This document shows positions 384 through 22,376 of a stretch of DNA of 22,376 nt, piece by piece. Under the pieces are notes generated by a model. It saw only the letters and a program-made list of their open reading frames with translations, ran no database searches and was not told the DNA's origin. Source of the DNA: a virus. Where the stretch lies: UHGV virus genome UHGV-0378502; one strand, given 5' to 3'. Made by a program: the position numbers and the translations under genes. Position 1 is the stretch's first letter. Each line of letters opens with the position of its first letter.

Positions 384-659
384 ATGTCGACTGAAAATGA
401 TGAAATCATTAACTCCCTGATACGCCAGATTAATAATTTTGATAAAGCATTGCAGCATGCTGCGGCGCGTAGTGATATAACTCTTTTAGCAATTTCATTT
501 CTTGCATCTGTAATGGATAAAAATGAAGTCGTACGACAGAGTCTTGTTGATTATATCGACTCGCTTCAACCAGGCACTTTCAATCATGAGAGCTTCAATC
601 ATGAGAAAGAGCATGTTAAATCTGTAATTAATTCTCTTGTTTTGAATCAAAAGAATTAA
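384..659 (+). CDS. Hypothetical small protein (91 aa) in an AT-rich accessory island
   Basis: ATG at 384 preceded by a perfect AGGAGG Shine-Dalgarno (374-379); ORF in frame with the longer track ORF 171..659, whose upstream start would be TTG without an RBS. AT-rich codon usage unlike flanking phage genes. Internal 12-nt tandem duplication ttcaatcatgag x2 (approx 580-606). No recognisable family. Confidence 0.45.
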   Translation: MSTENDEIINSLIRQINNFDKALQHAAARSDITLLAISFLASVMDKNEVVRQSLVDYIDSLQPGTFNHESFNHEKEHVKSVINSLVLNQKN

Positions 660-969
660 TGCTTTTTGTTGCAAGGTAATTTTCAAGGGGTTCTATTCGA
701 ATCCCTTTCTTTTTTATTAACAAGCCAAACCCCTTATCAATGATGTCCATTAATTCCAGAAAGTATTTTTCATGTAAATCCTGGTTATCAGAGAGCTGCT
801 TCTCTTCGTACAGCCCGATAAAGGCTCGGCGTACGTTACCGGATATATTGTCGATGGTTTCTTTTTCTACGGTACTCAGGTCAAGAGTCGCCAGTTGAGA
901 GCGAACCACATTCGATGCCATTTCCTGGAATGGTACTGGTAAATCTTTAAATTCCATCGTCAACCTCAT
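628..969 (-). CDS. Hypothetical protein (113 aa), second gene of a two-gene cassette downstream of cI
   Basis: ATG (plus 967-969) overlaps the stop of the upstream gene by 1 nt (ATGA-type coupling); alternative in-frame ATG at 955-957 with GAGG upstream. AT-rich. No recognisable family. Confidence 0.5.
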   Translation of the reverse strand: MRLTMEFKDLPVPFQEMASNVVRSQLATLDLSTVEKETIDNISGNVRRAFIGLYEEKQLSDNQDLHEKYFLELMDIIDKGFGLLIKKKGIRIEPLENYLATKSINSFDSKQEN

Positions 970-1202
970 CAGTCAGTGTTTCTGGTTAACCAGCGACGCG
1001 CGCCAGCTTCAGTTTTAAACGTTTTGCTTCTGGTATACGCCATCGCGGTAAACGTGCCGTCCTGGTTTGGAAACACGCCGTACACCAGAGATTCGTTGTT
1101 GCCAAGATCGATAGTATCCATGCTGACCTCATTTCCCCTTAACGCCGGGGTAGCGGAACAAAAACCTGCTGCATAGTTATTAAAGTTGAACCCTGCCGTC
1201 AT
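969..1202 (-). CDS. Hypothetical protein (77 aa), first gene of a two-gene cassette downstream of cI
   Basis: ATG start (plus 1200-1202), GAGG-containing leader, stop overlapping the start of the next gene. Lies about 210 bp downstream of the cI stop on the same strand. No recognisable family. Confidence 0.5.
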   Translation of the reverse strand: MTAGFNFNNYAAGFCSATPALRGNEVSMDTIDLGNNESLVYGVFPNQDGTFTAMAYTRSKTFKTEAGARRWLTRNTD

Positions 1203-1300
1203 GTTCTTACGCCTCGGGCTGGCTACTTAACCCCTGACCACTGCCTGGTAACTCGAAGTATTGCCCTGCATTCTGTAGGATGGGGTGAGGGAATGAATGA

Positions 1301-1329
1301 AGTTTAGAAAAACGAACTTTTTAGGTCAA
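1301..1329 (-). promoter_or_regulatory. Putative sigma70 promoter for the 969..1202 / 628..969 cassette
   Basis: On the minus strand: TTGACC (plus 1324-1329), 17-nt spacer, TAAACT (plus 1301-1306), about 90 nt upstream of the cassette start. Sequence-pattern prediction only. Confidence 0.35.
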
Positions 1330-1413
1330 TGTTTTTTTATCAAAACATTTTAAGCAGGCAGCTGTTAAGCCATCACCACGATGGCATACAGTTAATCAAA
1401 TAGATGAGGTTGG

Positions 1414-2052
1414 TTAAATATCTTGTTGAATTTTAAAGCATACGCCCAATATGCAAGATAGATCATCCAGCATAATTGAAGGGTAGCGAGGATTCGTGGG
1501 GACTAAAAGAATATCCGGCCCTTCTATCTCCAGTTTACGAATGACAGGTGTTGTGGTCCCTTTGGGTAAGGCAAGGACAATATTTCCTGGTTGTACGGTT
1601 CGATCGGGATCAACAAAAACTGTTGAACCATTTGGGATGGAAACTCCCCCACCAGATGTTGACATACTGTCACTCTCTAGAACAACTGCAAAGGTATTGA
1701 CCGGGATTTCTCCGACAAGCTGCACACAAGAGGTTATTGAGGAATTTTTCATATAATCACTCCAGCTTGCTGCCTGCTGAAGTGATAGTAGCGGAACCGT
1801 TTTTATCGGCGGTAAAGATAGATCAAGCGAATCACCTGTATTTAACTCTCCTCCATTAAGAAGCCAATTTTCGTTTACTTTCAATATTTTTGCCAGTGAA
1901 CTTATGTAACGCGAGGACGGCGCTCCTCCACCGTTCATCCATTGACTTACGGAGCCTTTTGATGCGCCAGTGCCATTGACAAGGTCTTTGCCTTTCAGGT
2001 TTAGCGCATGCATACGTTGGGTTATGCGTTCAGATATAGTTTGCTTGCTCAT
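1414..2052 (-). CDS. cI: Prophage repressor, cI-like (N-terminal HTH plus C-terminal LexA/S24 autopeptidase domain)
   Basis: 212-aa product with an HTH-like N-terminus and a C-terminal domain carrying the Ser (ESDSM) and Lys (VIRKL) of the S24 catalytic dyad; divergent from a cro-like gene across a 90-bp operator region; no Shine-Dalgarno before the ATG (leaderless-type, as for lambda pRM transcripts). Confidence 0.9.
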   Translation of the reverse strand: MSKQTISERITQRMHALNLKGKDLVNGTGASKGSVSQWMNGGGAPSSRYISSLAKILKVNENWLLNGGELNTGDSLDLSLPPIKTVPLLSLQQAASWSDYMKNSSITSCVQLVGEIPVNTFAVVLESDSMSTSGGGVSIPNGSTVFVDPDRTVQPGNIVLALPKGTTTPVIRKLEIEGPDILLVPTNPRYPSIMLDDLSCILGVCFKIQQDI

Positions 2053-2143
2053 GTTTTGATTTTAAAACACAGATGGTTTTGTTTCTTGACTTTCTTTGGT
2101 TTTGATTATTAAACTTTTGACGTTCAGTTTTATGGAGCGACTC
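2051..2143. promoter_or_regulatory. Divergent cI/cro operator-promoter region with three direct repeats
   Basis: Three copies of a TGGTTTTGnTT-like motif at about 2051-2062, 2073-2084 and 2097-2108 (22-24 bp spacing). Rightward -35 TTGACT (2086-2091) with a weak -10 (TATTAA/TTAAAC); leftward TAAAAT hexamer 6 nt before the cI ATG on the minus strand. Inference from sequence patterns. Confidence 0.45.
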
Positions 2144-2386
2144 ATGAAAAAATCAGAAGTATTAGGCTATTTTGGCGGAGTTGTTAAAACAGCCGCAGCT
2201 CTAGGAACGTCAAAAACCACAGTCAGCATGTGGGGGGAAGAGGTTCCGTGGAAATGGGCGTTGCTAATTCAGGCAGTCACTGCCGGGGCGCTCAAATATG
2301 AGTTACACATACCGACGGTTGTCATTCCCGGTTCTGATCATAATCCGCCTTCTAACCAAGGAGGGATTCATGAAAATCAAGCATGA
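2144..2386 (+). CDS. Cro-like HTH regulator, YdaS family-like
   Basis: Small HTH protein (MKKSEVLGYFGGVVKTAAALGTSKTTVSMWG...) divergent from cI at the Cro position. Start chosen at ATG 2144; the track ORF begins at 2096 and 2132 is another in-frame ATG. The 3' end overlaps the next gene. Confidence 0.7.
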   Translation: MKKSEVLGYFGGVVKTAAALGTSKTTVSMWGEEVPWKWALLIQAVTAGALKYELHIPTVVIPGSDHNPPSNQGGIHENQA

Positions 2387-2795
2387 ACACATCCGCATGG
2401 CGATGAATGCCTGGGCGCATCCGGACGGCGAAAAAGTACCGGCTGCGAAAATTACCAAAGCGTATTTCGAGCTGGGAATGACGTTCCCGGAACTGTATGA
2501 CGACAGCCATCCGGAAGCCCTGGCTCGCAATACCCAGAAAATTTTCCGCTGGGTAGAGAAAGACACCCCTGATGCAGTTGAAAAAATTCAGGCGTTGTTA
2601 CCAGCGATCGAAAAGGCAATGCCACCTTTGCTGGTGGCCAGAATGCGCAGCCACAGTTCAGCTTATTTTCGGGAGCTGGTGGAGACGCGGGAGCGACTGG
2701 TGAGAGACGCTGATGATTTTGTCGCAGTGGCAATCGCCGGTTTCAATCAGATGAACCGTGGTGGCCCGGCAGGAAATGCTGTGGCAGTACATTGA
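2370..2795 (+). CDS. YdaT-like / CII-like regulatory protein
   Basis: ATG at 2370 preceded by AGGAGGG (2358-2364); 141 aa beginning MKIKHEHIRMAMNAW, which I recall as characteristic of YdaT-family proteins encoded next to YdaS-type Cro in Rac-like prophages. Family assignment from memory. Confidence 0.6.
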   Translation: MKIKHEHIRMAMNAWAHPDGEKVPAAKITKAYFELGMTFPELYDDSHPEALARNTQKIFRWVEKDTPDAVEKIQALLPAIEKAMPPLLVARMRSHSSAYFRELVETRERLVRDADDFVAVAIAGFNQMNRGGPAGNAVAVH

Positions 2796-2866
2796 CTGAC
2801 AATAGCCATATCGAATCGCTTCCGGCAACTCGTGAGTAAAAAGATTCGGTATCAGAAGAGGTGAGT

Positions 2867-3937
2867 ATGGCTAACGCCTGGCTCAGATTATGGCATGACA
2901 TGCCAAATGACCCTAAGTGGCGAACAATTGCCAGGGTGTCAGGGCAGCCAATTGCAACAGTGATGGCAGTGTATATCCACCTCCTGGTGAGCGCGTCACG
3001 AAATGTCACGCGAGGTCACATTGATGTCACGACAGAAGATTTGGCAAGTGCGCTCGACGTGACAGAAGAGGTAATTGATTCAATTTTGCAGACGATGCAG
3101 GGGCGGGTACTTGATGGTGATTTAATCACTGGATGGGAAAAACGCCAGGTGCTGAAAGAGGACAACGGCAATATTTTGCAAACCGCAAAATCTCCGGCAG
3201 AGCGCAAGAGGGCGCAGCGAGAGAGGGAAAGAAAGCGGGAACAAAATGGCGATTGTCACGGCGAGTCACGAAATGTCACGCACATGTCACGACGAGTCAC
3301 GACAGATAAAGATACAGATAAAGATACAGATCAAGAAGATCAAAACACTATGGTCCATGGCGTAAAAAACGCCACGAACCAGGCAGGGGATGTTCAGACC
3401 GTCACTCCTGGCCAGCCCGCAGGCACGACACCGGAAGCCGATTCAGCGTATGCGCTGAAAGCCGATTCGGGCGCTGTGCAGCAGGTGATGACCGCAAGGC
3501 AGGAGCAATCACACCAACTTCAGCAGCCTGAAGCCGATTCCGCCATTCAGCGGGAAGCCGATCGGGTAGTCCCGGAAAACACCGGGCAGCCTGTGGGACG
3601 AGTGGATTATCCTGATGTGTTCGAACAGGTCTGGCGGGAATACCCGTTGCGTGCCGGGGCAAACCCGAAGAAATCCGCTTTCAGTGCCTGGAAAGCCAGA
3701 TTACGCGAGGGGGTGCCACCAGAGGCCATGCTGGATGGCGTGAGGCGTTACGCAAGATACCTTGCGGCTACCGGGAAAACGGGAACGGAATTTGTTCAGC
3801 GAGCGACGACGTTTTTTGGACCGGACCGGAATTTTGAAAACCCCTGGCTGCTCCCGGTAAGCGGCACGAACAACCAGCGTTGTGTGAATCATATTTCTGA
3901 ACCGGATAACGAAATTCCGCCGGGCTTCAGGGGGTAA
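2867..3937 (+). CDS. Phage replication initiator (replisome-organizer / O-like protein) containing internal iterons
   Basis: ATG 2867 with GAGG upstream. The N-terminus (MANAWLRLWHDMPNDPKWRTIAR...) resembles the phage replisome-organizer N-terminal domain; an acidic low-complexity linker (DKDTDKDTDQEDQ) separates it from a C-terminal domain; position is immediately downstream of the cro/cII-like genes. Family assignment from memory. Confidence 0.75.
   Translation: MANAWLRLWHDMPNDPKWRTIARVSGQPIATVMAVYIHLLVSASRNVTRGHIDVTTEDLASALDVTEEVIDSILQTMQGRVLDGDLITGWEKRQVLKEDNGNILQTAKSPAERKRAQRERERKREQNGDCHGESRNVTHMSRRVTTDKDTDKDTDQEDQNTMVHGVKNATNQAGDVQTVTPGQPAGTTPEADSAYALKADSGAVQQVMTARQEQSHQLQQPEADSAIQREADRVVPENTGQPVGRVDYPDVFEQVWREYPLRAGANPKKSAFSAWKARLREGVPPEAMLDGVRRYARYLAATGKTGTEFVQRATTFFGPDRNFENPWLLPVSGTNNQRCVNHISEPDNEIPPGFRG
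2995..3031 (+). repeat. Iteron cluster 1 inside the initiator gene (4 x GTCACG at about 10-bp phasing)
   Basis: GTCACG/GTCACA at 2995, 3005, 3015 and 3026 (spacing 10, 10, 11), with an inverted CGTGAC copy near 3058. Confidence 0.7.
3255..3345 (+). repeat. Iteron cluster 2 (5 x GTCACG at helical phasing) plus adjacent AT-rich tandem repeat; candidate origin of replication
   Basis: GTCACG at 3255, 3265, 3275, 3286 and 3296 (spacing 10, 10, 11, 10), followed by gataaagataca x2 and an A-rich stretch (3302-3345). The arrangement is analogous to ori-lambda lying inside gene O. Confidence 0.65.
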
Positions 3938-3977
3938 GTGTTAATTTCTGGTCATGAGGTAATTTTCAGGAGGGCTT

Positions 3978-4400
3978 GTGGCAAAAGTTTTTACACAAGA
4001 AGAGCGGGAAAAAATTAAAGGACAGGTTCTTGAACTCGTACGCCAGAGTGGGCGCGAGACGTTACGACAACTGGAAGCTAAAACTGGGGCAACAAGATAT
4101 CTGATGAGCGTTCTGGCCAGAGAGCTGGTTGCCAGTGGCGATGTATACAATTCTGGCTACGGGTTATTCCCGTCTGAACAGGCTCGTAAAGACTGGCAAA
4201 ATGCCCGCAAAAAATTATCGAGGGCAAAGCTGAAGAAACCGGTTGTGGTTGATCCGGACCTTATCTGGTCGTTACCTGACGGAGAAATACGTCGCTACGA
4301 CAGTCGCCTAAACATAATCTGTCGCGAGTGCCGGAAGAGTGAAGCTATGCAGCGTGTACTGGCTTTCTATCAGGGTAATTTTCAGGAGGCGGTACTGTGA
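3978..4400 (+). CDS. Hypothetical protein (140 aa)
   Basis: GTG start at 3978 preceded by AGGAGGG (3967-3973); ORF follows the initiator gene; no recognisable family. Confidence 0.55.
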   Translation: MAKVFTQEEREKIKGQVLELVRQSGRETLRQLEAKTGATRYLMSVLARELVASGDVYNSGYGLFPSEQARKDWQNARKKLSRAKLKKPVVVDPDLIWSLPDGEIRRYDSRLNIICRECRKSEAMQRVLAFYQGNFQEAVL

Positions 4401-4457
4401 GTGAAATTAGCTATCAGGCTTCAATTACCGCTGGCATTCGCATCAAAGGAGAGGAGC

Positions 4458-4814
4458 ATGGAAATAAAACCAGAGGATGAGTTAAGCAATATCGTTTTAT
4501 TTCCGGTAAAAGAGGATGACCCTCGTAATCAGGTTAATTTTCTTTATGAGCCATCGGAAAGACCATATTGTCATCACGCCTCTGTCCGGGTTGACGAAAA
4601 AGAGCGTCAGGTCCGCTGTAAAATCTGCGGTGCAGTTGTGGAGCCATTTGACTGGATGCTCTCTGTGGCGAAAAGAGAAACCAGACTGGCAGATGATGTA
4701 AGGCTCTTGCGTCAGGAGGAGCGGGAAAGGCGAAAAAATATAGAAAAGCTAATTCAGATTGAGCGTAACGCGAAAGCGCGGATACGCAGGGCGACAAAAT
4801 CCAGAACTGAATAA
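4458..4814 (+). CDS. Hypothetical protein with Cys/His cluster (possible zinc ribbon), 118 aa
   Basis: ATG 4458 preceded by AAGGAGAGGAG; contains CHH ... CKIC spacing suggestive of a zinc-binding motif; basic coiled C-terminus. The track ORF begins at GTG 4401. Confidence 0.55.
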   Translation: MEIKPEDELSNIVLFPVKEDDPRNQVNFLYEPSERPYCHHASVRVDEKERQVRCKICGAVVEPFDWMLSVAKRETRLADDVRLLRQEERERRKNIEKLIQIERNAKARIRRATKSRTE

Positions 4815-4878
4815 TTAAATTTAGCTCTGTTAAAAATTTAATCCTTAACCGGAGGGATTTCTGCACCCTCAGAACATC

Positions 4879-4910
4879 AGGAGGCCGCCCGAAAGGGCGG
4901 TAGTTAAATG
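4879..4910 (+). promoter_or_regulatory. Hairpin-split ribosome binding site (SD - stem-loop - AUG)
   Basis: AGGAGG at 4879-4884, then a perfect 6-bp stem with GAAA tetraloop (CCGCCC gaaa GGGCGG, 4885-4900), then ATG at 4908. Linear SD-AUG spacing is 23 nt; folding the hairpin would bring it to about 7 nt. Confidence 0.35.
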
Positions 4911-5090
4911 CGAAAGTTTAAAATAATTATTGAAACGGGAATAGCCGGTGGAGATTTCGAGGATGAATTCGAAGTGGATGATGATGCGATGCCTGATGAA
5001 ATACATGACGAAGAAAAAGATATTTTCTTTAACTACTGCAATTACTCATATCACGAAATAAAAGACGAAGAGGAAGAACAAAATGGCTGA
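4908..5090 (+). CDS. Small acidic protein (60 aa)
   Basis: ATG 4908; highly acidic product (DFEDEFEVDDDAMPDEIHDEE...); stop overlaps the next ATG (ATGGCTGA). Confidence 0.45.
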   Translation: MRKFKIIIETGIAGGDFEDEFEVDDDAMPDEIHDEEKDIFFNYCNYSYHEIKDEEEEQNG

Positions 5091-5259
5091 TTTTGGTTCA
5101 ACTAAATACAACGTCAGTTTTGAAGAATGGCATGAACTGTTAATGGACTATGCAGAGTTACGTGGTGGCAGTGCTGCTGATGCTGAAGCATGGCGTGATG
5201 ATTATGAAGCAGGAAAAACTCCGGTCGAAGCATATTGTGATGAGTGGGGCGATGAATGA
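5083..5259 (+). CDS. Small hypothetical protein (58 aa), translationally coupled
   Basis: ATG 5083 overlapping the stop of the previous ORF; product MADFGSTKYNVSFEEWHELLMDYAELRGGSAADAEAWRDDYEAGKTPVEAYCDEWGDE. Falls below the 60-aa cut-off of the supplied track and was found by reading the sequence. Confidence 0.45.
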   Translation: MADFGSTKYNVSFEEWHELLMDYAELRGGSAADAEAWRDDYEAGKTPVEAYCDEWGDE

Positions 5260-5314
5260 GCGAGGTTAATTATCAGGAAGGGCATGAAACGGCGGGGCAA
5301 GCAAAAACAGTGGC

Positions 5315-5572
5315 ATGGCGATATCGCTACGTGAAAAAAAAGGCGTTACGGACTTTCAGGGGAAGTAGTGGTCTGGTGACTGGAAATATGTACCGAAAAA
5401 AGAGGATTGTAACGACAGGCCGAACTATGAAATTCAGGCCTTATTCACTGCCCCGCCAGTCCCGGTTACATCAGAAGAACTGGTTAAAGCTGTGCACTTT
5501 TATGAACAACTAAAACGCGAAAATCCACCAGCATCCGGAAACCTGATTACAGATTCCCAGATAAGGCAATGA
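5315..5572 (+). pseudogene. Interrupted ORF: protein-like reading frame broken by a single in-frame TAG (5366-5368); alternatively read via the overlapping frame-0 ORF 5256..5513
   Basis: Frame beginning at ATG 5315 reads MAISLREKKGVTDFQGK-[TAG]-WSGDWKYVPKKEDCNDRPNYEIQALFTAPPVPVTSEELVKAVHFYEQLKRENPPASGNLITDSQIRQ. The supplied track instead calls a very basic 85-aa ORF in another frame (5256..5513). Two A_AAA_AAG heptamers occur in the frame-0 ORF (5336-5342 and 5396-5402). Confidence 0.3.
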
Positions 5573-5742
5573 GCTACCTAGCGCAGAACGGGCTGATAAG
5601 TATGGGGAATGTTTTACGATGAATATTTAGACTAAAGAGTTTGTAACGCTATGTAAGTGATTTTTTCTGGTTTAGATATTTATATGTCCGGCCAAATTGA
5701 GGTGTGTTTAAATGTAATTGCACATTGATTGTAGGAGGAATA

Positions 5743-5922
5743 ATGAAAAACGCATTGCAGTTTTTGTTTGTTGCGTTTTGGTTGTTCGTATCATGTATGC
5801 CCATCATCTTCACAGCAAGGTATATGGAAAAAGTTGATGTTTTGATATTAATATTTGGATATATAAATGCCCTTTTTTTAGGGGTGTTCATGGCGGTCAT
5901 GTGCATTGAATACTGGCGGTAA
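5743..5922 (+). CDS. Small hydrophobic membrane protein (59 aa, two predicted TM segments)
   Basis: ATG 5743 preceded by AGGAGGA (5733-5739); product MKNALQFLFVAFWLFVSCMPIIFTARYMEKVDVLILIFGYINALFLGVFMAVMCIEYWR; very AT-rich surroundings (5580-5950). Confidence 0.5.
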   Translation: MKNALQFLFVAFWLFVSCMPIIFTARYMEKVDVLILIFGYINALFLGVFMAVMCIEYWR

Positions 5923-6180
5923 ATACAGCGAACGCCATTGGTTTAGTTGGATATTTACTGTGCCGGACAAAAACGGTTTGCGGGGAAATCTTAGTTAAGT
6001 AGAATGACTGCGGGTGCTTGAGGCTATCTGTCTCAGGCATGAACACCAAAAGGCAGATAGAGAAAAGCCCCAGTTAACATTACGCGTCCTGCAAGACGCT
6101 TAACATTAATCTGAGGCCATATCTATGCGACACATAGAGATTAGCCTCTTACGGACCGAAAGGTCAAGGAGAAGCAGGCT

Positions 6181-6336
6181 ATGAAGCAGCAAAAGGCGAT
6201 GTTAATCGCCCTGATCGTCATCTGTTTAACCGTCATAGTGACGGCACTGGTAACGAGGAAAGACCTCTGCGAGGTACGAATCCGAACCGGCCAGACGGAG
6301 GTCGCTGTCTTCACAGCTTACGAACCTGAGGAGTAA
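6181..6336 (+). CDS. hokD: Hok-family type I toxin (HokD/RelF-like, 51 aa)
   Basis: Product MKQQKAMLIALIVICLTVIVTALVTRKDLCEVRIRTGQTEVAVFTAYEPEE matches my recollection of HokD/RelF; long structured leader upstream and a GC hairpin plus T-run downstream, as expected for hok mRNAs. Confidence 0.85.
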   Translation: MKQQKAMLIALIVICLTVIVTALVTRKDLCEVRIRTGQTEVAVFTAYEPEE

Positions 6337-6406
6337 GAGACCTGGCGGGGGAGAAATCCCTCGCCACCTCTGATGTGTCAGGCATCCTCAACGCACCCGC
6401 ACTTAA

Positions 6407-6431
6407 CCCGCTTCGGCGGGTTTTGTTTTTT
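6407..6431 (+). terminator. Intrinsic terminator at the 3' end of the hok transcript
   Basis: CCCGC ttcg GCGGG stem-loop (6407-6420) followed by TTTTGTTTTTT. Confidence 0.6.
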
Positions 6432-6503
6432 CCTGGCATTCTGGTTTACAATTCGCACGTCAGCCTGAACACCTGACACCTGCTGCGCCAGCAGAGAAAA
6501 CAG

Positions 6504-6776
6504 ATGGCGCACAAAACCAAATTTCACAATTCTGATACCGACCTTGCCATCCGGCATGAGCGGCGTTCACACGCATTTAAAACCGACTGGTACCAACACC
6601 CACCATGTACTGAAGAACAGGCCGAATGGCTGATTCATTCTTACCGCAGGCGCGGGTTCGAGGTTAAGAAAGCTCTCAGTCTCGACTATCGGCACTGGAT
6701 AATCTCTGTCAGGCTGCCTTATTCCGAACGCCCACCACGTCCGTCCCGCACTTTCCAGCAACGGATCTGGAGGTAA
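6504..6776 (+). CDS. Hypothetical protein (90 aa)
   Basis: ATG 6504; stop immediately followed by a GGAGG RBS and the start of the next gene; no recognisable family. Confidence 0.5.
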   Translation: MAHKTKFHNSDTDLAIRHERRSHAFKTDWYQHPPCTEEQAEWLIHSYRRRGFEVKKALSLDYRHWIISVRLPYSERPPRPSRTFQQRIWR

Positions 6777-6777
6777 C

Positions 6778-7836
6778 GTGCGGGTATTACTTAGACCTGT
6801 TCTGGTGCCTGAGCTTGGGCTGGTGGTCCTTAAGCCGGGCCGTGAATCCATACAGATATTTCATAATCCTCGAGTGCTGGTGGAGCCGGAACCGAAAAGC
6901 ATGTGCGGCCTGCCATCCGGAGTCGTCCCTGCCGTTCGCCAGCCGCTGGCGGAGGATAAATCATTACTGCCATTTTTCAGCAATGAGCGTGTGATTCGTG
7001 CTGCTGGCGGCGCTGGTGCACTGTCTGACTGGCTGTTGCGCCATATTAAATCCTGCCAGTGGCCACACGGTGATTATCACCACAGTGAAACCGTCATTCA
7101 CCGTTATGGTACCGGCGCAATGGTGTTGTGCTGGCACTGCGACAACCAGTTGTGTGACCAGACCTCAGAATCACTTGAGCAACTTGCTCACCAAAACTTG
7201 TCAGCATGGATGATTGACGTCATCCGTCACGCAATCAGCGGTACGCAGGAGAGGGAGTTATCGCTGGCCGAATTATCCTGGTGGGCGGTCTGCAATCAGG
7301 TGGCTGATGCGCTTCCGGAGTCTGTATTGTGTCGTTCACTGGGATTACCGGTGGAAAAAATCCGCTCCGTATACCGTGAGAGTGACATCGTACCGGGAGA
7401 ACAGACTGCCACCAGCATACTGAAGCAGCGCACAAAAAATATTGCGCTGCCACTTCACGTCCACCAGCAACAGCCCCCACTCCAGGAAAAGACGTTAGTA
7501 AGCATCGCCGTTGATCCGGAGTCTCCGGCTCAGTATCTCCAGCGCCAGAAACCACGACGGGAAGAGATGCCTGTATACACGCGCTGGGTAAAAACGCAGA
7601 AATGCATGACGTGTGGTAATCAGGCAGATGATCCGCATCACATCATTGGTCATGGACTGGGAGGGATGGGAACAAAGGCTGATGATTTGTTTGTTATTCC
7701 GCTGTGCCGTAAATGCCATAGCGAACTACACGCCGGGGTAAAAGATTTTGAAGAAAAACACGGCAGCCAGCTGTTGTTGCTGATTCGTTTTTTAATGCAC
7801 GCGAGAAATTCGGGTGTCCTGAAGTGGAAAGCATGA
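6778..7836 (+). CDS. DUF968-like prophage protein with C-terminal HNH-like zinc-finger motif (YdfU-like)
   Basis: GTG 6778 with GGAGG 5 nt upstream; C-terminal CMTCGN ... DPHHIIGHGLGG ... CRKCHSELH (CxxC ... HH ... CxxCH); stop abuts the rusA start. Family assignment from memory of Qin-prophage YdfU. Confidence 0.65.
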   Translation: MRVLLRPVLVPELGLVVLKPGRESIQIFHNPRVLVEPEPKSMCGLPSGVVPAVRQPLAEDKSLLPFFSNERVIRAAGGAGALSDWLLRHIKSCQWPHGDYHHSETVIHRYGTGAMVLCWHCDNQLCDQTSESLEQLAHQNLSAWMIDVIRHAISGTQERELSLAELSWWAVCNQVADALPESVLCRSLGLPVEKIRSVYRESDIVPGEQTATSILKQRTKNIALPLHVHQQQPPLQEKTLVSIAVDPESPAQYLQRQKPRREEMPVYTRWVKTQKCMTCGNQADDPHHIIGHGLGGMGTKADDLFVIPLCRKCHSELHAGVKDFEEKHGSQLLLLIRFLMHARNSGVLKWKA

Positions 7837-8202
7837 ATGACTGAACGCATAGAATTTGTTTTGCCTTACCCGCCAACGGTGAACACTTACTGGCGACGTC
7901 GTGGCAGCACATATTTTGTATCAAAAGCCGGTGAGCGTTATCGCCGTGATGTGGCGCTTATTGTTCGCCAGCAGCGGCTGAAATTAAACCTGTCCGGAAG
8001 GCTGGCGATAAAGATTATTGCAGAGCCACCGGATAAACGTCGTCGTGACCTGGACAATATCCTGAAAGCACCACTGGATGCGCTGACGCATGCCGGACTT
8101 CTCATAGACGACGAGCAGTTTGATGAAATCAATATTGTGCGCGGTCAGCGCGTTCCTGGGGGGCGGCTGGGCGTGAAGATTTACAAAATTGAGAGTGAGT
8201 GA
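7837..8202 (+). CDS. rusA: Holliday-junction resolvase RusA
   Basis: 121-aa product with RusA hallmarks (PPTVNTYW near the N-terminus, RRDLDN acidic catalytic region); typical nin-region position just upstream of the Q-like gene. Confidence 0.9.
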   Translation: MTERIEFVLPYPPTVNTYWRRRGSTYFVSKAGERYRRDVALIVRQQRLKLNLSGRLAIKIIAEPPDKRRRDLDNILKAPLDALTHAGLLIDDEQFDEINIVRGQRVPGGRLGVKIYKIESE

Positions 8203-8210
8203 TCGTAAAT

Positions 8211-8753
8211 ATGATATACCCGGAAATTACAGGCAAAAGCGGCGAGCATTTACGTCTAAAAACGCTGGAAGCCGTCTGGATCCAGGGGAAATTACGGATG
8301 TGGGGGCGTTGGTCGTATATAGGTGGTGGCAAACCAGGAAATATGTTCAATCAGTTGCTGGCATCCAAAAAACTGACAAAAACCGCAATCAATGAAGCCC
8401 TGCGTAGAATCAGGGAGTCAGGGATTGATAAACCAGAGCTGGAAGCATTCTTGCGAGAGATGATCGCTGGCAGACAGAAGAGCTGGTTGTCTCACTGTAC
8501 TGATGCAGAGGCGTTACGCATTGATGGGGTGATAAGTAAAGCGCTTGCACGTTATCCTGGATTGATTGATATCCTGCGGCAAAGGTACGAAGGGCGGGGG
8601 ATGAGTAAACGCAAAATGGCTGAATTGTTGAATGAGGTGCACCCGGAATGGTGTTTTAGTACATGCGAAAAGCGAATTGCTAATTGGTTGGCTGTTGCTG
8701 AATATGCGCTATACATCCCTATGCGAGAATCGTTTGCTCAAAAAATGTCTTGA
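8211..8753 (+). CDS. Putative late-gene antiterminator (Q-like)
   Basis: Positional: follows rusA and precedes a promoter-like element plus a strong intrinsic terminator and the late genes. Contains an LRMWGRWSY segment reminiscent of the WG-W motif I recall in 21-type Q proteins. Start could be GTG 8199 (overlapping the rusA stop) or ATG 8211. Confidence 0.5.
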   Translation: MIYPEITGKSGEHLRLKTLEAVWIQGKLRMWGRWSYIGGGKPGNMFNQLLASKKLTKTAINEALRRIRESGIDKPELEAFLREMIAGRQKSWLSHCTDAEALRIDGVISKALARYPGLIDILRQRYEGRGMSKRKMAELLNEVHPEWCFSTCEKRIANWLAVAEYALYIPMRESFAQKMS

Positions 8754-8778
8754 TTTTTTACGCATAAACTGTTTCAAT
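8750..8778 (+). promoter_or_regulatory. Candidate late promoter (PR'-like)
   Basis: TTGATT (8750-8755), 17-nt spacer, TTCAAT (8773-8778), located between the Q-like stop and the terminator at 8838-8861. Pattern-based prediction. Confidence 0.3.
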
Positions 8779-8837
8779 CCAGCTACGCTTCGCAAAGCTA
8801 TACCGCGAGGCGAATAGCAGACATGGACACCTGAAAG

Positions 8838-10431: not shown

Positions 10432-10507
10432 GGCCCTTTAGCTCAGTGGTGAGAGCGAGCGACTCATAATCGCCAGGTCGCTGGTTCAAATCCAGCAAGG
10501 GCCACCA
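10432..10507 (+). tRNA. tRNA with CAT anticodon (Ile2/lysidine-type or Met)
   Basis: Manual cloverleaf: acceptor GGCCCTT/AAGGGCC, D-arm GCTC-AGTGGTGA-GAGC, anticodon stem AGCGA/TCGCC with loop CTCATAA, T-arm GCTGG-TTCAAAT-CCAGC, discriminator A, encoded CCA. Resembles the ileZ-type tRNA I recall from Stx-converting phages. Confidence 0.8.
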
Positions 10508-10514
10508 TCACATA

Positions 10515-10591
10515 CCGCCATTAGCTCATCGGCAGAGAGCGTCAGCTTTCGAAACTGGCTGTGTGGGGCTCGGGTCCCCGATGGCAATCCA
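10515..10591 (+). tRNA. tRNA-Arg(TCG)-like gene, possibly degenerate
   Basis: D-arm TAGCTCA ... GAGC and an anticodon loop TTTCGAA (anticodon TCG) are recognisable and a CCA is present at 10589-10591, but in my manual fold the first two acceptor pairs and one anticodon-stem pair are mismatched and the T-loop is atypical. Boundaries are approximate. Confidence 0.45.
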
Positions 10592-10604
10592 TTATCTGCA
10601 TTAT

Positions 10605-10681
10605 GCGTTGTTAGCTCAGCCGGACAGAGCAATTGCCTTCTAAGCAATCGGTCACTGGTTCGAATCCAGTACAACGCGCCA
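10605..10681 (+). tRNA. tRNA-Arg (anticodon TCT, reads AGA/AGG)
   Basis: Manual cloverleaf with perfect acceptor stem GCGTTGT/ACAACGC, D-arm GCTC ... GAGC, anticodon stem ATTGC/GCAAT with loop CTTCTAA, T-arm ACTGG-TTCGAAT-CCAGT, discriminator G, encoded CCA. Confidence 0.85.
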
Positions 10682-13200: not shown

Positions 13201-13593
13201 CAGGCATTACAGCAGCCCTTCACTCTAAGGGGTTGCTGTAATGTGAGAAATAAAAAACCGGTCACAGGGAGCAGCTACACAGAAGCGGCCGGCGAAGACC
13301 GCCAATACCACCCATGCATTGATGCAACATACTAATGACAATAGCCGCTATTGATGTAAATGCAATGTTATGCATCGACGAAAATAAAAAACCGGCAGGG
13401 GAAATCCATTGAAGATTTGCCGGTGGCAAAAGAGGGCCATGTTTTTAACCTTAGTCGCAGAGTTACGGAGTGCAACTACGAATGCTGCCGGTATATGGCT
13501 GAATGGCGTTTCAATGATGTACGTCATCTTATCTGTAAATGTTAATGACAAACGCTCTCATTTGTGCGGGTCCTTCCGGTGGGGTGGCCTGCC

Positions 13594-13641
13594 ACGGGGC
13601 GGAAGGCGCGCGGGTTTTCGCTATTTATGAAAATTTTCCGG
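13594..13641. other. cos site (cosN region) of the lambda type
   Basis: cgcgggttttcgctatttatgaaaattttccgg (13609-13641) is identical to the sequence I recall at lambda positions 13-45, and the upstream flank (gcgggtcctt-ccggtg) resembles the lambda right end; by alignment the 12-nt overhang would be 13597-13608 (GGGCGGAAGGCG). Lies about 190 bp upstream of nu1, as in lambda. Confidence 0.7.
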
Positions 13642-13647
13642 GGAAAA

Positions 13648-13762
13648 TCATGTCGGTACTTCTCGAACATAACTATTTGTTTTTTCTAATATCGAATCCG
13701 TAAAAGGTCCGACATGAAAACGCCTAAAAAAGTCATTTTCGGGCACTTTCATGTCGGACCCT
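13648..13762. promoter_or_regulatory. cosB-like terminase small-subunit binding repeats (three CATGTCGGNCC elements, middle one inverted)
   Basis: catgtcggtac (about 13650-13660, forward), ggtccgacatg (13705-13715, reverse) and catgtcggacc (13752-13762, forward), separated by AT-rich DNA; the last two form a 14-bp perfect inverted repeat (GGTCCGACATGAAA / TTTCATGTCGGACC). Orientation pattern mirrors lambda R3, R2 (inverted) and R1, but the sequence differs from the lambda R consensus. Confidence 0.5.
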
Positions 13763-13784
13763 GTGTTTGTTGTGAGACTGTTTC

Positions 13785-14304
13785 ATGAAGGTTAATAAAA
13801 AGAAACTTGCCGAAATTTTCAACGTGGATCCGCGAACGATTGAACGCTGGCAGTCTCAGGGACTCCCTTGCGTCTCCGGAGGTGGTAAGGGCGTTGAATC
13901 TGTATTTGATACCTCCATGGCAATTCAGTGGTATGCGCAGAGGGAGGCTGATATCGAAAATGAAAAACTCCGTAAAGAGGTTGAGGATTACAGGGCTGCC
14001 AGTGAGGCAGATCTCCAGCCTGGGACTATTGAGTACGAACGCCATCGACTTACGCGTGCGCAGGCCGACGCACAGGAGCTGAAGAATGCCAGAGACTCCG
14101 CAGAAGTGGTGGAAACCGCATTCTGTACTTTCGTGCTGTCACGGATCGCAGGTGAAATTGCCAGTATTCTTGACGGGATCCCTCTCTCGGTACAGCGGCG
14201 TTTTCCGGAACTGGAAAACCGACATGTTGATTTCCTGAAACGGGATATCATCAAAGCCATGAACAAAGCAGCCGCGCTGGATGAACTGATACCGGGGTTG
14301 CTGA

Positions 14305-14330
<26 letters not shown>
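13785..14330 (+). CDS. nu1: Terminase small subunit Nu1
   Basis: 181 aa; from about residue 70 onward essentially identical to my recollection of lambda gpNu1 (... [60 protein letters not shown] ...), while the N-terminal DNA-binding region is homologous but clearly divergent. Confidence 0.95.
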
Positions 14331-18011
<3,681 letters not shown>

Positions 18012-18031
<20 letters not shown>

Positions 18032-19331
18032 TCTCCCGCATATTGCCAGCATGGCTTTTAATGAGCCGCTGATGCTTGAACCCGCCTATGCGCGGGTTTT
18101 CTTTTGTGCGCTTGCAGGCCAGCTTGGGATCAGTCGCCTGACGGATGCAGTATCCGGCGACAGCCTGACTGCCGGAGAGGCACCCGCGGCGCTGGCGTTA
18201 TCCGGTGATGATGACGGACCACGACAGGCCCGCAGTTATCAGGTCATGAACGGCATCGCCGTGCTGCCGGTGTCCGGTACGCTGGTCAGCCGGACGCGGG
18301 CGCTGCAGCCGTATTCGGGAATGACCGGTTACAACGGCATTATCGCCCGTCTGCAACAGGCTGCCAGCGATCCGATGGTGGACGGCATTCTGCTCGATAT
18401 GGACACACCGGGCGGGATGGTGGCGGGAGCATTTGACTGTGCTGACATCATCGCCCGTGTGCGTGACATAAAGCCGGTATGGGCGCTGGCCAACGACATG
18501 AACTGCAGTGCAGGTCAGCTGCTTGCCAGCGCCGCCTCCCGGCGTCTGGTCACGCAGACCGCCCGGACAGGCTCCATCGGCGTCATGATGGCTCACAGTA
18601 ATTACGGCGCTGCGCTGGAGAAACAGGGCGTGGAAATCACGCTGATTTACAGCGGCAGCCATAAGGTGGATGGCAACCCCTACAGCCATCTACCGGGTGA
18701 TGTCCGGGAAACACTGCAGTCCCGGATGGATGCAACCCGCCGGATGTTTGCGCAGAAGGTGTCGGCATATACCGGCCTGTCCGTGCAGGCTGTGCTGGAT
18801 ACCGAGGCTGCAGTGTACAGCGGTCAGGAGGCCATTGATGCCGGACTGGCTGATGAACTTGTTAACAGTACCGATGCGATCACCGTCATGCGTGATGCAC
18901 TGGATGCACGTAAATCCCGTCTCTCAGGAGGGCGAATGACCAAAGAGACTCAATCAACAACTGTTTCAGCCACTGCTTCGCAGGCTGACGTTACTGGCGT
19001 GGTGCAAGCGACGGAGGGCGAGAACGCCAGCGCGGCGCAGCCGGACGTGAACGCGCAGATCACCGCAGCGGTTGCGGCAGAAAACAGCCGCATTATGGGG
19101 ATCCTCAACTGTGAGGAGGCTCACGGACGCGAAGAACAGGCCCGCGTGCTGGCAGAAACCCCCGGTATGACCGTGGAAACGGCCCGCCGTATTCTGGCCG
19201 CAGCACCACAGAGTGCACAGGCGCGCAGTGACACTGCGCTGGATCGTCTGATGCAGGGGGCACCGGCACCGCTGGCTGCAGGTAACCCGGCATCTGATGC
19301 CGTTAACGATTTGCTGAACACACCAGTGTAA
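18012..19331 (+). CDS. C: Head maturation protease / scaffold C (S49 family)
   Basis: 439 aa from GTG 18012 (GGAGGAG RBS at 18001-18007), beginning (M)TAELRNLPHIASMAFNEPLML as I recall for lambda gpC; the track ORF start at 17877 is an upstream in-frame extension overlapping B. Confidence 0.9.
18936..19331 (+). CDS. nu3: Scaffolding protein Nu3 (in-frame internal start within C)
   Basis: Internal ATG 18936 preceded by GGAGGG, giving the 131-aa product MTKETQSTTVSATASQADV ... corresponding to lambda gpNu3, which is co-terminal with C. Confidence 0.75.
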   Translation: MTKETQSTTVSATASQADVTGVVQATEGENASAAQPDVNAQITAAVAAENSRIMGILNCEEAHGREEQARVLAETPGMTVETARRILAAAPQSAQARSDTALDRLMQGAPAPLAAGNPASDAVNDLLNTPV

Positions 19332-19340
19332 GGGATGTTT

Positions 19341-19673
19341 ATGACGAGCAAAGAAACCTTTACCCATTACCAGCCGCTGGGCAACAGTGACCCGGCTCAT
19401 ACCGCAACCGCGCCCGGCGGATTGAGTGCGAAAGCGCCTGCAATGACCCCGCTGATGCTGGACACCTCCACCCGTAAGCTGGTTGCGTGGGATGGCACCA
19501 CCGACGGTGCTGCCGTTGGCATTCTTGCGGTTGCTGCTGACCAGACCAGCACCACACTGACGTTCTACAAGTCCGGCACGTTCCGTTATGAGGATGTGCT
19601 CTGGCCGGAGGCTGCCAGCGACGAGACGAAAAAACGGACCGCGTTTGCCGGAACGGCAATCAGCATCGTTTAA
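19341..19673 (+). CDS. D: Head decoration protein D
   Basis: 110 aa, [43 protein letters not shown] ..., matching lambda gpD as I recall it; ATG 19341 (the track ORF starts two codons upstream). Confidence 0.95.
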
Positions 19674-19694
19674 CCTTACCCTTCATCACTAAAG

Positions 19695-19717
19695 GCCGCC
19701 TGTGCGGCTTTTTTTAC
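19695..19717 (+). terminator. Stem-loop plus T-run between D and E (terminator-like or mRNA-stabilising hairpin)
   Basis: GCCGC ctgt GCGGC followed by TTTTTTT; the same element is present in lambda between D and E as I recall the sequence. Confidence 0.4.
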
Positions 19718-19728
19718 GGGATTTTTTT

Positions 19729-20754
19729 ATGTCGATGTACACAACCGCCCAGCTGCTGGCGGCAAATGAGAAGAAATTTAAGTTTGATCCGCTGTTTCTG
19801 CGTCTCTTTTTCCGTGAGAGCTATCCCTTCACCACGGAGAAAGTCTATCTCTCACAAATTCCGGGACTGGTAAACATGGCGCTGTACGTTTCGCCGATTG
19901 TTTCCGGTGAGGTTATCCGTTCCCGTGGCGGCTCCACCTCTGAATTTACGCCGGGATATGTCAAACCCAAGCATGAGGTGAATCCGCAGATGACCCTGCG
20001 TCGCCTGCCGGATGAAGATCCGCAGAATCTGGCGGACCCGGCTTACCGCCGCCGTCGCATCATCATGCAGAACATGCGAGACGAAGAGCTGGCCATTGCT
20101 CAGGTCGAAGAGATGCAGGCAGTTTCTGCTGTGCTTAAGGGCAAATACACCATGACCGGTGAAGCCTTCGATCCGGTTGAGGTGGATATGGGCCGCAGTG
20201 CGGCGAACAACATCACACAGTCCGGTGGTACGGAGTGGAGCAAGCGTGACAAGTCCACGTATGACCCGACCGACGATATCGAAGCCTATGCGCTGAACGC
20301 CAGCGGAGTGGTGAATATCATCGTGTTTGATCCGAAAGGCTGGGCGCTGTTCCGTTCCTTCAAAGCCGTCAAGGAGAAGCTGGATACCCGTCGCGGCTCT
20401 AATTCCGAGCTGGAGACAGCGGTAAAAGACCTGGGCGAAGCGGTGTCCTATAAGGGGATGTATGGCGATACGGCGATCGTCGTGTATTCCGGACAGTACG
20501 TGGAAAACGACGTCAAAAAGAACTTCCTGCCGGACAACACGATGGTGCTGGGGAACACTCAGGCACGCGGTCTGCGCACCTATGGCTGCATTCAGGATGC
20601 GGACGCACAGCGCGAAGGTATTAACGCCTCTGCCCGCTACCCGAAAAACTGGGTGACCACCGGCGATCCGGCGCGTGAGTTCACCATGATTCAGTCAGCA
20701 CCGCTGATGCTGCTGGCTGACCCTGATGCGTTCGTGTCCGTACAACTGGCGTAA
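19729..20754 (+). CDS. E: Major capsid protein E
   Basis: 341 aa from ATG 19729, MSMYTTAQLLAANEKKFKFDPLFLRLFFRESYPFTTEKVYLSQIPGLVNMALYVSPIVSGEVIRSRGG ..., near-identical to my recollection of lambda gpE. Confidence 0.95.
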   Translation: MSMYTTAQLLAANEKKFKFDPLFLRLFFRESYPFTTEKVYLSQIPGLVNMALYVSPIVSGEVIRSRGGSTSEFTPGYVKPKHEVNPQMTLRRLPDEDPQNLADPAYRRRRIIMQNMRDEELAIAQVEEMQAVSAVLKGKYTMTGEAFDPVEVDMGRSAANNITQSGGTEWSKRDKSTYDPTDDIEAYALNASGVVNIIVFDPKGWALFRSFKAVKEKLDTRRGSNSELETAVKDLGEAVSYKGMYGDTAIVVYSGQYVENDVKKNFLPDNTMVLGNTQARGLRTYGCIQDADAQREGINASARYPKNWVTTGDPAREFTMIQSAPLMLLADPDAFVSVQLA

Positions 20755-20795
20755 TCATGGCCCTTCGGGGCCATTTTCTCTCTGTGGAGGAGTCC

Positions 20796-21191
20796 ATGAC
20801 GAAAGATGAACTGATTGCCCGTCTTCAGGTGCTGGGTGAGCAACTGAACCGTGATGTCAGCCTGACGGGGACGAAAGAAGAACTGGTGCTCCGTGTGGCA
20901 GAGCTGGAAGAGGAGCTTGATGACACGGATGACGCTGCCGGTCAGGACACATCTGTCAGCCCGGAAAATGCGCTGACCGGACATGAAAATGAGGTTGTAT
21001 CAGCGCAGCCGGATACCGTGACTGATACGGCTGATCTGGTCACGGTTGTGGCACTGGTGACGCTGCATACTGATGCACTTCACGCCACGCGGGATGAGGC
21101 TGTGGCATTTGTGCTGCCGGGAACGGCGTTCCGTGTCTCTGCCGGTGTGTCAGCTGAAATGACAGAGCGCGGCCTGGCCAGAATGCAATAA
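20796..21191 (+). CDS. FI: Head assembly/packaging accessory protein FI
   Basis: 131 aa from ATG 20796 (GGAGGAG RBS), MTKDELIARLQVLGEQLNRDVSLTGTKEEL ..., matching lambda gpFI with a few substitutions. Confidence 0.9.
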   Translation: MTKDELIARLQVLGEQLNRDVSLTGTKEELVLRVAELEEELDDTDDAAGQDTSVSPENALTGHENEVVSAQPDTVTDTADLVTVVALVTLHTDALHATRDEAVAFVLPGTAFRVSAGVSAEMTERGLARMQ

Positions 21192-21202
21192 CGGGAGGCG
21201 CT

Positions 21203-21556
21203 GTGGCTGATTTCGATAACCTGTTCGATGCTGCCATTGCCCGCGCCGATGAAACGATACGCGGGTACATGGGAACGTCAGCCACCATGACATCCGGTGA
21301 GCAGTCCGGTGCTGTGATACGTGGTGTTTTTGATGACCCTGAAAATATCAGCTATGCCGGACAGAGCGTGCGCGTTGAAGGCTCCAGCCCGTCCCTGTTT
21401 GTCCGGACTGATGATGTGCGGCAGCTGCGGCGCGGCGACACGCTGACCATCGGTGAGGAAAACTTCTGGATAGACCGGATTTCGCCGGATGATGGCGGAA
21501 GCTGTCATCTCTGGCTTGGGCGGGGCGTACCGCCTGCCGTTAACCGTCGCCGCTGA
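21203..21556 (+). CDS. FII: Head-tail connector protein FII
   Basis: 117 aa, MADFDNLFDAAIARADETIRGYMGTSATMTSGEQSGAVIRGVFDDPENISYAGQSVRVEG ..., matching lambda gpFII; GTG start at 21203 with GGGAGG upstream. Confidence 0.9.
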   Translation: MADFDNLFDAAIARADETIRGYMGTSATMTSGEQSGAVIRGVFDDPENISYAGQSVRVEGSSPSLFVRTDDVRQLRRGDTLTIGEENFWIDRISPDDGGSCHLWLGRGVPPAVNRRR

Positions 21557-21567
21557 AAGGGGGATGT

Positions 21568-22146
21568 ATGGCCATAAAAGGTCTTGAGCAGGCCGTTGAA
21601 AACCTCAGCCGTATCAGCAGAACGGCGGTGCCCGGTGCCGCCGCAATGGCCATTAACCGCGTTGCTTCATCCGCGATATCGCAGTCGGCGTCACAGGTTG
21701 CCCGTGAGACAAAGGTACGCCGGAAACTGGTAAAGGAAAGGGCCAGGCTGAAAAGGGCCACGGTTAAAAATCCGCAGGCCAGAATCAAGGTTAACCGGGG
21801 GGATTTGCCCGTAATCAAGCTGGGTAACGCGCGGGTTGTCCTGTCCCGACGCAGGCGTCGTAAAAAGGGGCAGCGTTCATCCCTGAAAGGTGGCGGCAGC
21901 GTGCTTGTGGTGGGAAACCGTCGTATTCCCGGCGCGTTTATTCAGCAACTGAAAAATGGCCGGTGGCATGTCATGCAGCGTGTGGCCGGGAAAAACCGTT
22001 ACCCCATTGATGTGGTGAAAATCCCGATGGCGGTGCCGCTGACCACGGCGTTTAAACAGAATATTGAGCGGATACGGCGTGAACGTCTTCCGAAAGAGCT
22101 GGGCTATGCGCTGCAGCATCAACTGAGAATGGTAATAAAGCGATGA
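21568..22146 (+). CDS. Z: Tail completion protein Z
   Basis: 192 aa, MAIKGLEQAVENLSRISRTAVPGAAAMAINRVASSAISQSASQVARETKVRRKLVKERARLKRATVKNPQARIKVNRGDLPVIKLG ..., matching lambda gpZ. Confidence 0.9.
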   Translation: MAIKGLEQAVENLSRISRTAVPGAAAMAINRVASSAISQSASQVARETKVRRKLVKERARLKRATVKNPQARIKVNRGDLPVIKLGNARVVLSRRRRRKKGQRSSLKGGGSVLVVGNRRIPGAFIQQLKNGRWHVMQRVAGKNRYPIDVVKIPMAVPLTTAFKQNIERIRRERLPKELGYALQHQLRMVIKR

Positions 22147-22376
22147 AACATACTGAACTCCGTGCAGCCGTACTGGATGTACTGGAGAAGCATGACACCG
22201 GGGCGACGTTTTTTGATGGTCGCCCCGCTGTTTTTGATGAGGCGGATTTTCCGGCAGTTGCCGTTTATCTCACCGGCGCTGAATACACGGGCGAAGAGCT
22301 GGACAGCGATACCTGGCAGGCGGAGCTGCATATTGAAGTTTTCCTGCCTGCTCAGGTGCCGGATTCAGAGCTGGAT
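22143..22376 (+). CDS. U: Tail tube terminator protein U (5' part; continues past the window end)
   Basis: ATG 22143 overlapping the Z stop; MKHTELRAAVLDVLEKHDTGATFFDGRPAVFDEADFPAVAVYLTGAEYTGEELDSDTWQAELHIEVFLPAQVPDSELD resembles lambda gpU; truncated by the window. Confidence 0.9.
   Translation, partial: MKHTELRAAVLDVLEKHDTGATFFDGRPAVFDEADFPAVAVYLTGAEYTGEELDSDTWQAELHIEVFLPAQVPDSELD

Follow-up and report, generated by a model that had tools for sequence, protein, structure and literature searches.

The packaging specificities of phages lambda and 21 are discriminated by the helix of TerS and by bp 56 and 59 of the cosB site R3, as worked out by Feiss and co-workers (PMC4669245). The hybrid phage lambda-21 hy51, from the same laboratory, carries cosB21, a TerS whose 5' part derives from gene 1 of phage 21 and whose 3' part derives from lambda Nu1, and the gpA and heads of lambda. 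It is viable and, as a '21-specific helper', packages 21-specific DNA ~10^3-10^4-fold better than lambda-specific DNA (PMC4669245, PMC9026076). Within cosN, bp 7-12 vary naturally and mutations there are of little effect since cosB anchors TerL; selection acts on cosQ, on the left half of cosN and on the CG pairs that flank the nicks (PMC4669245). The cosN of N15/phiD326 differs at bp 9 and 12 and that of Gifsy-1 at bp 8, 9 and 11, and lambda TerL cuts the N15 cosN no less well than that of lambda (PMC4669245). A lambda/21 chimera is already known in concept, in mechanism and in design.

Here we describe the homology, anatomy, mosaic boundaries and population distribution of a packaging module found in the window, that is, the whole stretch of 22,376 nucleotides that was analysed. 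The window corresponds to the late region of an E. coli lambdoid prophage, and the region studied comprises the cos site and terminase genes of that prophage. Judged from its alignments, the module is very likely a natural lambda/21 chimera made by recombination within nu1, in which a 21-like cosB and TerS winged-helix domain are combined with a lambda-type remainder.

Prophage context and the lambda-type remainder

Prophages of ETEC H10407 and of several further strains, mostly ETEC, matched positions 13400-14100 with 100% identity. The H10407 prophage is annotated with an integrase, lysis genes, a terminase and lambda-like head and tail genes. Otherwise identical to the window, this prophage (L008, NC_017633) carries the IS66-family element ISCro1 at 26444-29059, in the interval from D to the major capsid gene; at ~19673-19702 the window has no such insertion, and its E is full length. 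Elsewhere in the window, at 6012-6183 and 10432-10681, a sok antitoxin RNA (hok/sok type I toxin-antitoxin, Rfam 106.7 bits) and, upstream of the lysis genes, the tRNAs Met-CAT, Arg-TCG and Arg-TCT were found. Such a placement of tRNA genes upstream of the lysis genes is usual in many Stx-like lambdoid prophages.

The original prediction, made from the letters alone, held that DNA and protein follow lambda almost exactly from about the middle of nu1 onward, which the alignments bore out: 13929-22376 aligned with lambda 335-8785 at 97.4% identity. The nu1 gene (13785..14330, + strand) ends within gene A, its stop overlapping the A start at 14305. Its codons 73-181 and stop (14001..14330, +) make up the lambda-type part, assigned to oligomerisation and TerL binding. 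Residues 71-181 of Nu1 were identical to lambda at 109 of 111 positions and to phage 21 at 57 of 111, and over residues 72-181 a single difference from lambda remained, L132I. Gene A (14305..16230, +) encodes a lambda-type TerL of 641 aa with 3 differences from lambda gpA (99.5% identical). Pfam matches were obtained to Phage_Nu1 (300.8 bits, over residues 1-164), GpA_ATPase (172.8 bits) and GpA_nuclease (248.8 bits), so that these domains, the overlap of the nu1 stop with the A start, and a lambda-type TerS C-terminus next to a lambda-type TerL are found together, as in a lambda-type terminase. Each head gene, nu1 through Z, has a full-length open reading frame.

In two deposited phages, IdasGreatGrand (L003, 3782-5667) and phiSTEC1575-Stx2k (L007, 3450-5335), the 641 codons of gene A are not annotated as one gene; the records have a 144-nt 'hypothetical protein' and, as a separate feature, a shortened terminase large subunit. 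An artefact of annotation or of start-site choice, or else a frameshift, would seem to explain both records.

A 21-type cosB

Alignment with lambda and phage 21 located an identity breakpoint, upstream of which neither the Nu1 N-terminus nor cosB is identical to lambda. In a sensitive DNA search, 13594-13990 showed 85-86% nucleotide identity to the cos site and gene 1 of phage 21 (over ~380-395 nt), and the block formed by cosB and the 5' part of nu1 was only ~55-60% identical to lambda. The prediction had likened the arrangement to the difference between lambda and 21 by way of analogy. The likeness holds and goes further than analogy, the block being homologous to phage 21 cosB and gene 1.

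The motif CATGTCGG(N)(A/C)C (CATGTCGGNMC) occurred three times in the 22,376 bases, against 0.09 expected by chance, and all three copies lie in the cosB position, at 13649-13659 (+), 13706-13716 (-) and 13750-13760 (+). Their forward, inverted, forward order had been predicted correctly; the core named at the time, CATGTCGGNCC, is matched by the first copy, CATGTCGGTAC, at only 10 of 11 positions. This first copy lies in R3 (13646..13661, +; AATCATGTCGGTACTT), a predicted 21-type TerS binding site at bp 50-65 from the left end, which is the position of R3 in the phage 21 record OL657228. Like 21, R3 of the window has G at bp 56 and 59, and it differs from 21 only at bp 54 (A not G). R2 (~13704..13719, -) is inverted relative to R3 and R1 and reads CATGTCGGACC on the minus strand, and R1 (~13746..13762, +) reads CATGTCGGACC on the plus strand; they correspond to R2 and R1 of phage 21, R1 with two base differences. 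Between R3 and R2 lies I1, a predicted IHF site (AAACAAATAGTTA on the reverse strand, ~13670..13682) that aligns with the annotated I1 of phage 21. The interval from cosN to R3 has no indels relative to 21 or lambda, and the distance from R3 to R2 is 1 bp longer than in 21. In all, the 21-type R3 position with G56 and G59, the three R sites with R2 inverted and the IHF site between R3 and R2 are each found in the window.

R2 and R1 also form the cores of a longer 25-nt inverted repeat (13706-13730 and 13736-13760), with arms that are 84% complementary and 5 nt apart, which sits just upstream of the ribosome-binding region of nu1. Promoter/terminator and Rfam scans gave no match in the cos region. 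An antisense ORF at 13749-14045 and an ORF at 13539-13703 were rejected as genes, as cos and nu1 fully account for the stretch.

The TerS DNA-binding domain

The N-terminal ~70 residues of Nu1 had been described as clearly divergent from lambda, and this was confirmed: 41 of 70 (59%) were identical to lambda and 60 of 70 to gp1 of phage 21. Codons 1-52 (13785..13940, +) encode a 21-type winged helix-turn-helix DNA-binding domain. Over the 55 residues of the domain, 48 are identical to gp1 and 30 to lambda. The recognition helix is that of gp1, TerS residues 14-26 being identical to it (lambda counterpart ASIRTIQNWQEQG), and the seven differences from gp1 fall mostly in the wing. The wing itself (13872-13895, Nu1 residues 30-37) reads VSGGGKGV, compared with LRGGGKGN in lambda and ASKGSKGI in phage 21. 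A lambda-like wing amid 21-type helices may reflect a micro-mosaic or a wing specific to this lineage.

Phage 21 (M81255, OL657228) therefore resembles the window in the spacing of R3-I1-R2-R1 from cosN, in the R cores, in the recognition helix, in cosQ and in I2. It differs in its own TerS C-terminus and TerL (~64% to lambda gpA), in its GGGCGGCGACCT cohesive end and in its SKGSKG wing.

These differences raise the question of whether the cosB and TerS N-terminal block could constitute a third packaging specificity, related to 21 but distinct, with neither the lambda nor the 21 terminase packaging such DNA. The 13% amino-acid divergence from gp1 in residues 1-55 is concentrated in the wing and helix 3; R3 has A and not G at bp 54, R1 has two differences, and the R3-R2 interval is 1 bp longer. 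The allele moreover forms a distinct IMG/VR cluster with 87-89% identity to gp1, where classic 21 alleles have 98-100%. The recognition helix is nevertheless unchanged, and the discriminator bases at bp 56 and 59 are 21-type. The 8-bp core CATGTCGG is common to R2 and R1 of both phages, R3 of phage 21 deviating only at bp 54 (CGTGTCGG), and the conservative wing change K35R is phenotypically silent in lambda TerS (PMC9026076). A third specificity is thus unlikely. Exact cross-compatibility with phage 21 is not assured, because the wing, bp 54 of R3, R1 and the R3-R2 spacing differ.

The recombination junction and the parental lineages

The original prediction of a swapped unit of cosB and Nu1 N-terminus with a junction inside nu1 was upheld, and the junction was moved from 13980-14020 to 13941-14000 (+, nu1 codons 53-72). 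Within this short, patchy zone the informative sites turn from the 21-like parent to lambda. Solved TerS DNA-binding-domain constructs span residues 1-54 to 1-68; on the sequence alignment, the junction falls directly after the DNA-binding domain as delimited by these fragments of 54-68 residues.

Two IMG/VR contigs, L176 and L179, matched the window over 13477-13939 save one or two bases and beyond that point both their TerS C-terminus and their TerL are 21-type, the TerL sharing ~64% identity with lambda gpA. By their sequence, these contigs represent the left parent, in which the cosQ-cosN spacer and the cohesive-end allele of the window were already present. All recovered natural hybrids with a 21 N-terminus and a lambda C-terminus carry the junction peptide KEVEDY(F)RAASEADLQ, and this identity of the junction peptide argues for a single origin of these hybrids followed by spread.

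A pattern of this kind could in principle arise without recombination, by unequal rates along one lineage with a fast DNA-binding end and a slow remainder, and specificity determinants do often evolve faster than structural parts. Such an account is hardly credible here. The 5' block is near-identical to that of L176/L179, in which it is joined to a 21-type 3' nu1 and TerL, whereas the 3' block is 97-100% lambda. The switch in identity is abrupt, taking place within 60 nt, and the hybrid allele is found with both cosN alleles. We therefore retain recombination between a 21-like and a lambda-like parent.

cosQ and the spacer to the left of cosN

The packaging-termination signal cosQ (GGGTCCT, 13568..13574, +) equals the 7-bp cosQ annotated in phage 21 (OL657228) and that of lambda. 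In the window it lies 29 bp from the nick, compared with 30 bp in lambda and 21, a one-base deletion in a T run (TCCTTTCC to TCCTTCC) having brought it 1 bp nearer. Many contigs share this shorter cosQ-cosN spacing. Wieczorek and Feiss reportedly found in 2001 that base changes between cosQ and cosN are tolerated and that the spacing matters.

The spacer between cosQ and cosN (13575..13596, +) is an alternative haplotype, TCCGGTGGGGTGGCCTGCCACG, in which the nick-adjacent CG is conserved. These 22 bases to the left of the nick differ from lambda, 21, IdasGreatGrand and phiSTEC1575-Stx2k, and the haplotype turns up again in IMG/VR, combined with several cohesive-end alleles and types of cosB. 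In particular, the spacer haplotype GGTGGGGTGGCCTGCC, with cosQ 1 bp nearer the nick, was seen with the AAGGCG, CAGGCG and AGACCT alleles (the window and loci L226, L236 and L235/L237), and likewise with lambda-, 21- and N15/Monarch-like cosB. Since one spacer haplotype accompanies varied alleles and cosB types, the blocks that recombination reshuffles within cos are a few tens of bases long.

A perfect 7-bp inverted repeat, CCTTCCG/CGGAAGG (13572-13578 and 13600-13606), brackets the left nick site; it is created jointly by the one-base deletion beside cosQ and by AAGG in the variant cohesive end. A structural role for the repeat was considered and dropped, and it is probably a product of chance, because other flanks with the same cohesive-end allele have only an imperfect version.

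The cohesive-end allele

By positional homology to the cosN of lambda and 21, the predicted 12-nt cohesive end of the window is GGGCGGAAGGCG (13597..13608, +), flanked by CACG on the left and CGCGGG on the right. It differs from the GGGCGGCGACCT of lambda and 21 at bp 7, 8, 9, 10 and 12. The left half of cosN and the nick-flanking CG pairs are intact, and these were invariant in 190/190 collected loci, partly owing to the search pattern. The right half (bp 7-12) reads AAGGCG, in which only C11 is kept of the lambda-type bases. As bp 7-12 are variable within the group in the literature, this mismatch is compatible with membership of the lambda-like cos sites. To the right of the nick the prediction had noted 33 nt that match lambda, and blastn showed this segment, which holds the cosN right flank and I2 (13609..13641, +), to be 100% identical to lambda bp 13-45. 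The phage 21 record M81255 has I2 among its annotations, and termination is reported to need it (PMC4669245).

Like the window, N15/phiD326 and Gifsy-1 have their changes confined to bp 7-12, with the left half, the CG flanks and cosQ conserved; the window has five cohesive-end differences (7, 8, 9, 10, 12) compared with two or three in those phages. Its allele lies in the tolerant half of cosN, in agreement with the published genetics.

The AAGGCG allele was present in at least 82 IMG/VR stretches and in the phage records PhiR46_1 and YDC107_1, and in an allele-blind sample it was found in 5 of 120 contigs. This frequency leaves out the E. coli counts from a 48-nt cosN probe, for which full and partial matches are not cleanly separable. 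A scan of genome contigs for the variant cosN returned mostly chance matches in GC-rich genomes and one Escherichia contig. Within the searchable literature the string GGGCGGAAGGCG gave no relevant report, the sole match being an unrelated plant paper. Neither PhiR46_1 nor YDC107_1 starts at the cohesive end in its deposited form; as no examined phage record with the GGGCGGAAGGCG allele starts there, the ends of the allele are predicted ones. The plaque-forming status of PhiR46_1 is taken from the host field of its GenBank record and, as far as the available text goes, from a citing paper that used the phage panel.

The allele is combined with cosB/TerS of either the lambda or the 21 type and likewise with TerL of either type, and its different left flanks number more than 20. 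The original prediction was right that the 3' half of the cohesive end and the left flank of cosN differ from lambda; as a part of the swap they do not hold up. The cosN polymorphism is separate from the specificity swap and assorts independently of cosB type. Related cohesive-end alleles were CAGGCG, CAGACG, CTGACG, AGACCT, TGACCT and CGACCG, and across all alleles C11, the left half and the CG flanks were constant.

No gpA residue co-varied with the cosN allele among 83 full-length gpA sequences. The largest difference in any column, 0.26, lay at polymorphic gpA sites without a clear link to the allele. With no linked gpA change in these 83 sequences, a co-evolved nuclease for the AAGGCG allele was rejected. 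In one AAGGCG locus, gpA is 100% identical to lambda.

An altered cohesive-end half and left flank might also be read as degenerative, the cos site being the decayed relic of a defective prophage that has lost packaging. The prophage does sit in a bacterial chromosome, the head region of its ETEC H10407 copy holds an inserted IS66-family element, and five changes are clustered in 6 bp beside a divergent spacer. An identical 6-nt allele is, however, found in at least 82 viral contigs, with many flanks and both cosB types, as well as in the deposited phage PhiR46_1. Furthermore, cosQ, the left cosN half, both nick-flanking CG pairs, C11, I2 and all R boxes are intact, and the head genes of the window from nu1 to Z are full-length. 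We consider a decayed site very unlikely, and GGGCGGAAGGCG is not read as a product of decay.

Distribution of the hybrid

The hybrid nu1 allele was found in at least 22 IMG/VR and reference loci with a readable nu1 and in the deposited phage IdasGreatGrand (PP925829), which was isolated from swamp mud. IdasGreatGrand shares with the window the chimeric nu1 and cosB (95-100% identity over 13613-14330) followed by a lambda-type TerL, and differs from it in having a lambda-type cohesive end and cosQ-cosN spacer. In complete E. coli genomes, a 21-family cosB/nu1 segment (at least 80% coverage of 13613-14060) was present in ~1180 of 5426, a count that mixes the window variant with classic 21-type cosB. 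In ~565 records the best match had at least 95% identity to the window block, though not all of these need be full-length.

Further TerS N-terminal types were seen behind a lambda-like cosN, for example with the recognition regions VDVRTITAWQSQG and VDIRTIDRWQTQG, and a cosB with repeats of the GGTTGTTGTT type (N15/Monarch-like) also occurs in this position; both observations come from the loci L010, L028, L115, L050, L226 and L229-L235. Given these varied TerS N-termini and cosB types, several specificity cassettes circulate on one cosN/I2 scaffold.

Discussion

The block swap described here is real but ordinary, having been built and studied in the laboratory and being common in nature. What is added is that the natural chimera is widespread, that its junction maps just past the DNA-binding domain, that a cohesive-end allele with five substitutions is common, and that reassortment within cos is on a very fine scale.

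From their common architecture, namely a 21-type cosB, a TerS that is 21-like 5' and lambda-like 3', and a lambda-type gpA, the window is the natural counterpart of the engineered lambda-21 hy51. It differs from hy51 in that the hybrid arose naturally and in that its 21-like donor shares only ~85-88% identity with phage 21. The left-end segment of hy51 is ~600 bp (PMC4669245) and the junction of the window lies at ~bp 345-405 from the left end, apparently nearer to where the DNA-binding domain ends. A different cosN right half and a different cosQ-cosN spacer set the window apart as well.

We propose that the winged-helix DNA-binding domain of TerS (Nu1) came from a phage 21-like lineage together with the adjoining cosB and its matching 21-type R3-I1-R2-R1, and that the rest of TerS, with its self-association and TerL-binding functions, TerL (gpA) and the whole head module are lambda-type. 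The module probably arose when a 21-like phage already in possession of this cosN allele recombined with a lambda-like phage within codons 53-72 of nu1. From lambda/21 genetics, a dimer of the 21-type winged helix-turn-helix would bind R3 and R2 with the DNA between them bent by IHF at I1, and the lambda-type gpA would be held by the C-terminus of TerS, itself lambda-type. Positioned by the R3 anchor, gpA would nick cosN 12 bp apart to give 5' ends of GGGCGGAAGGCG, and termination would be served by cosQ, cosN and I2. With a 21-type DNA-binding domain and cosB on a lambda-type TerS C-terminus and gpA, 21-type packaging specificity is predicted; the module would package 21-specific and not lambda-specific DNA, like lambda-21 hy51. 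The DNA binding, the packaging specificity and the actual virion ends given here are predictions from this arrangement.

A more speculative and rather doubtful suggestion is that the cohesive-end alleles GGGCGGCGACCT, GGGCGGAAGGCG and a few intermediates define compatibility groups among lambda-like phages, the polymorphism being kept by selection and not by neutral tolerance at bp 7-12. A mismatch at 2 of 12 cohesive-end positions costs ~fourfold in yield (PMC4669245). If the suggestion were true, a chromosome whose two ends derive from unlike cos sites would be mismatched at 5 of its 12 cohesive-end positions and would cyclise poorly, and the cohesive-end polymorphism would act as a post-packaging barrier to hybrid genomes, possibly also to hijacking by satellites (PICI).

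Current understanding is not overturned by the lambda/21 chimera, and the common five-substitution cohesive-end allele joins the list of natural cosN variants. The exchange unit that laboratory genetics defined, namely cosB plus the DNA-binding domain of TerS, which can be separated from the part that binds TerL, is also passed on as a cassette among wild E. coli prophages. Prophages with a 'lambda-like terminase' are thus probably not all of lambda packaging specificity, which calls for caution in annotation and is relevant to predictions of helper/satellite relationships and of transduction.
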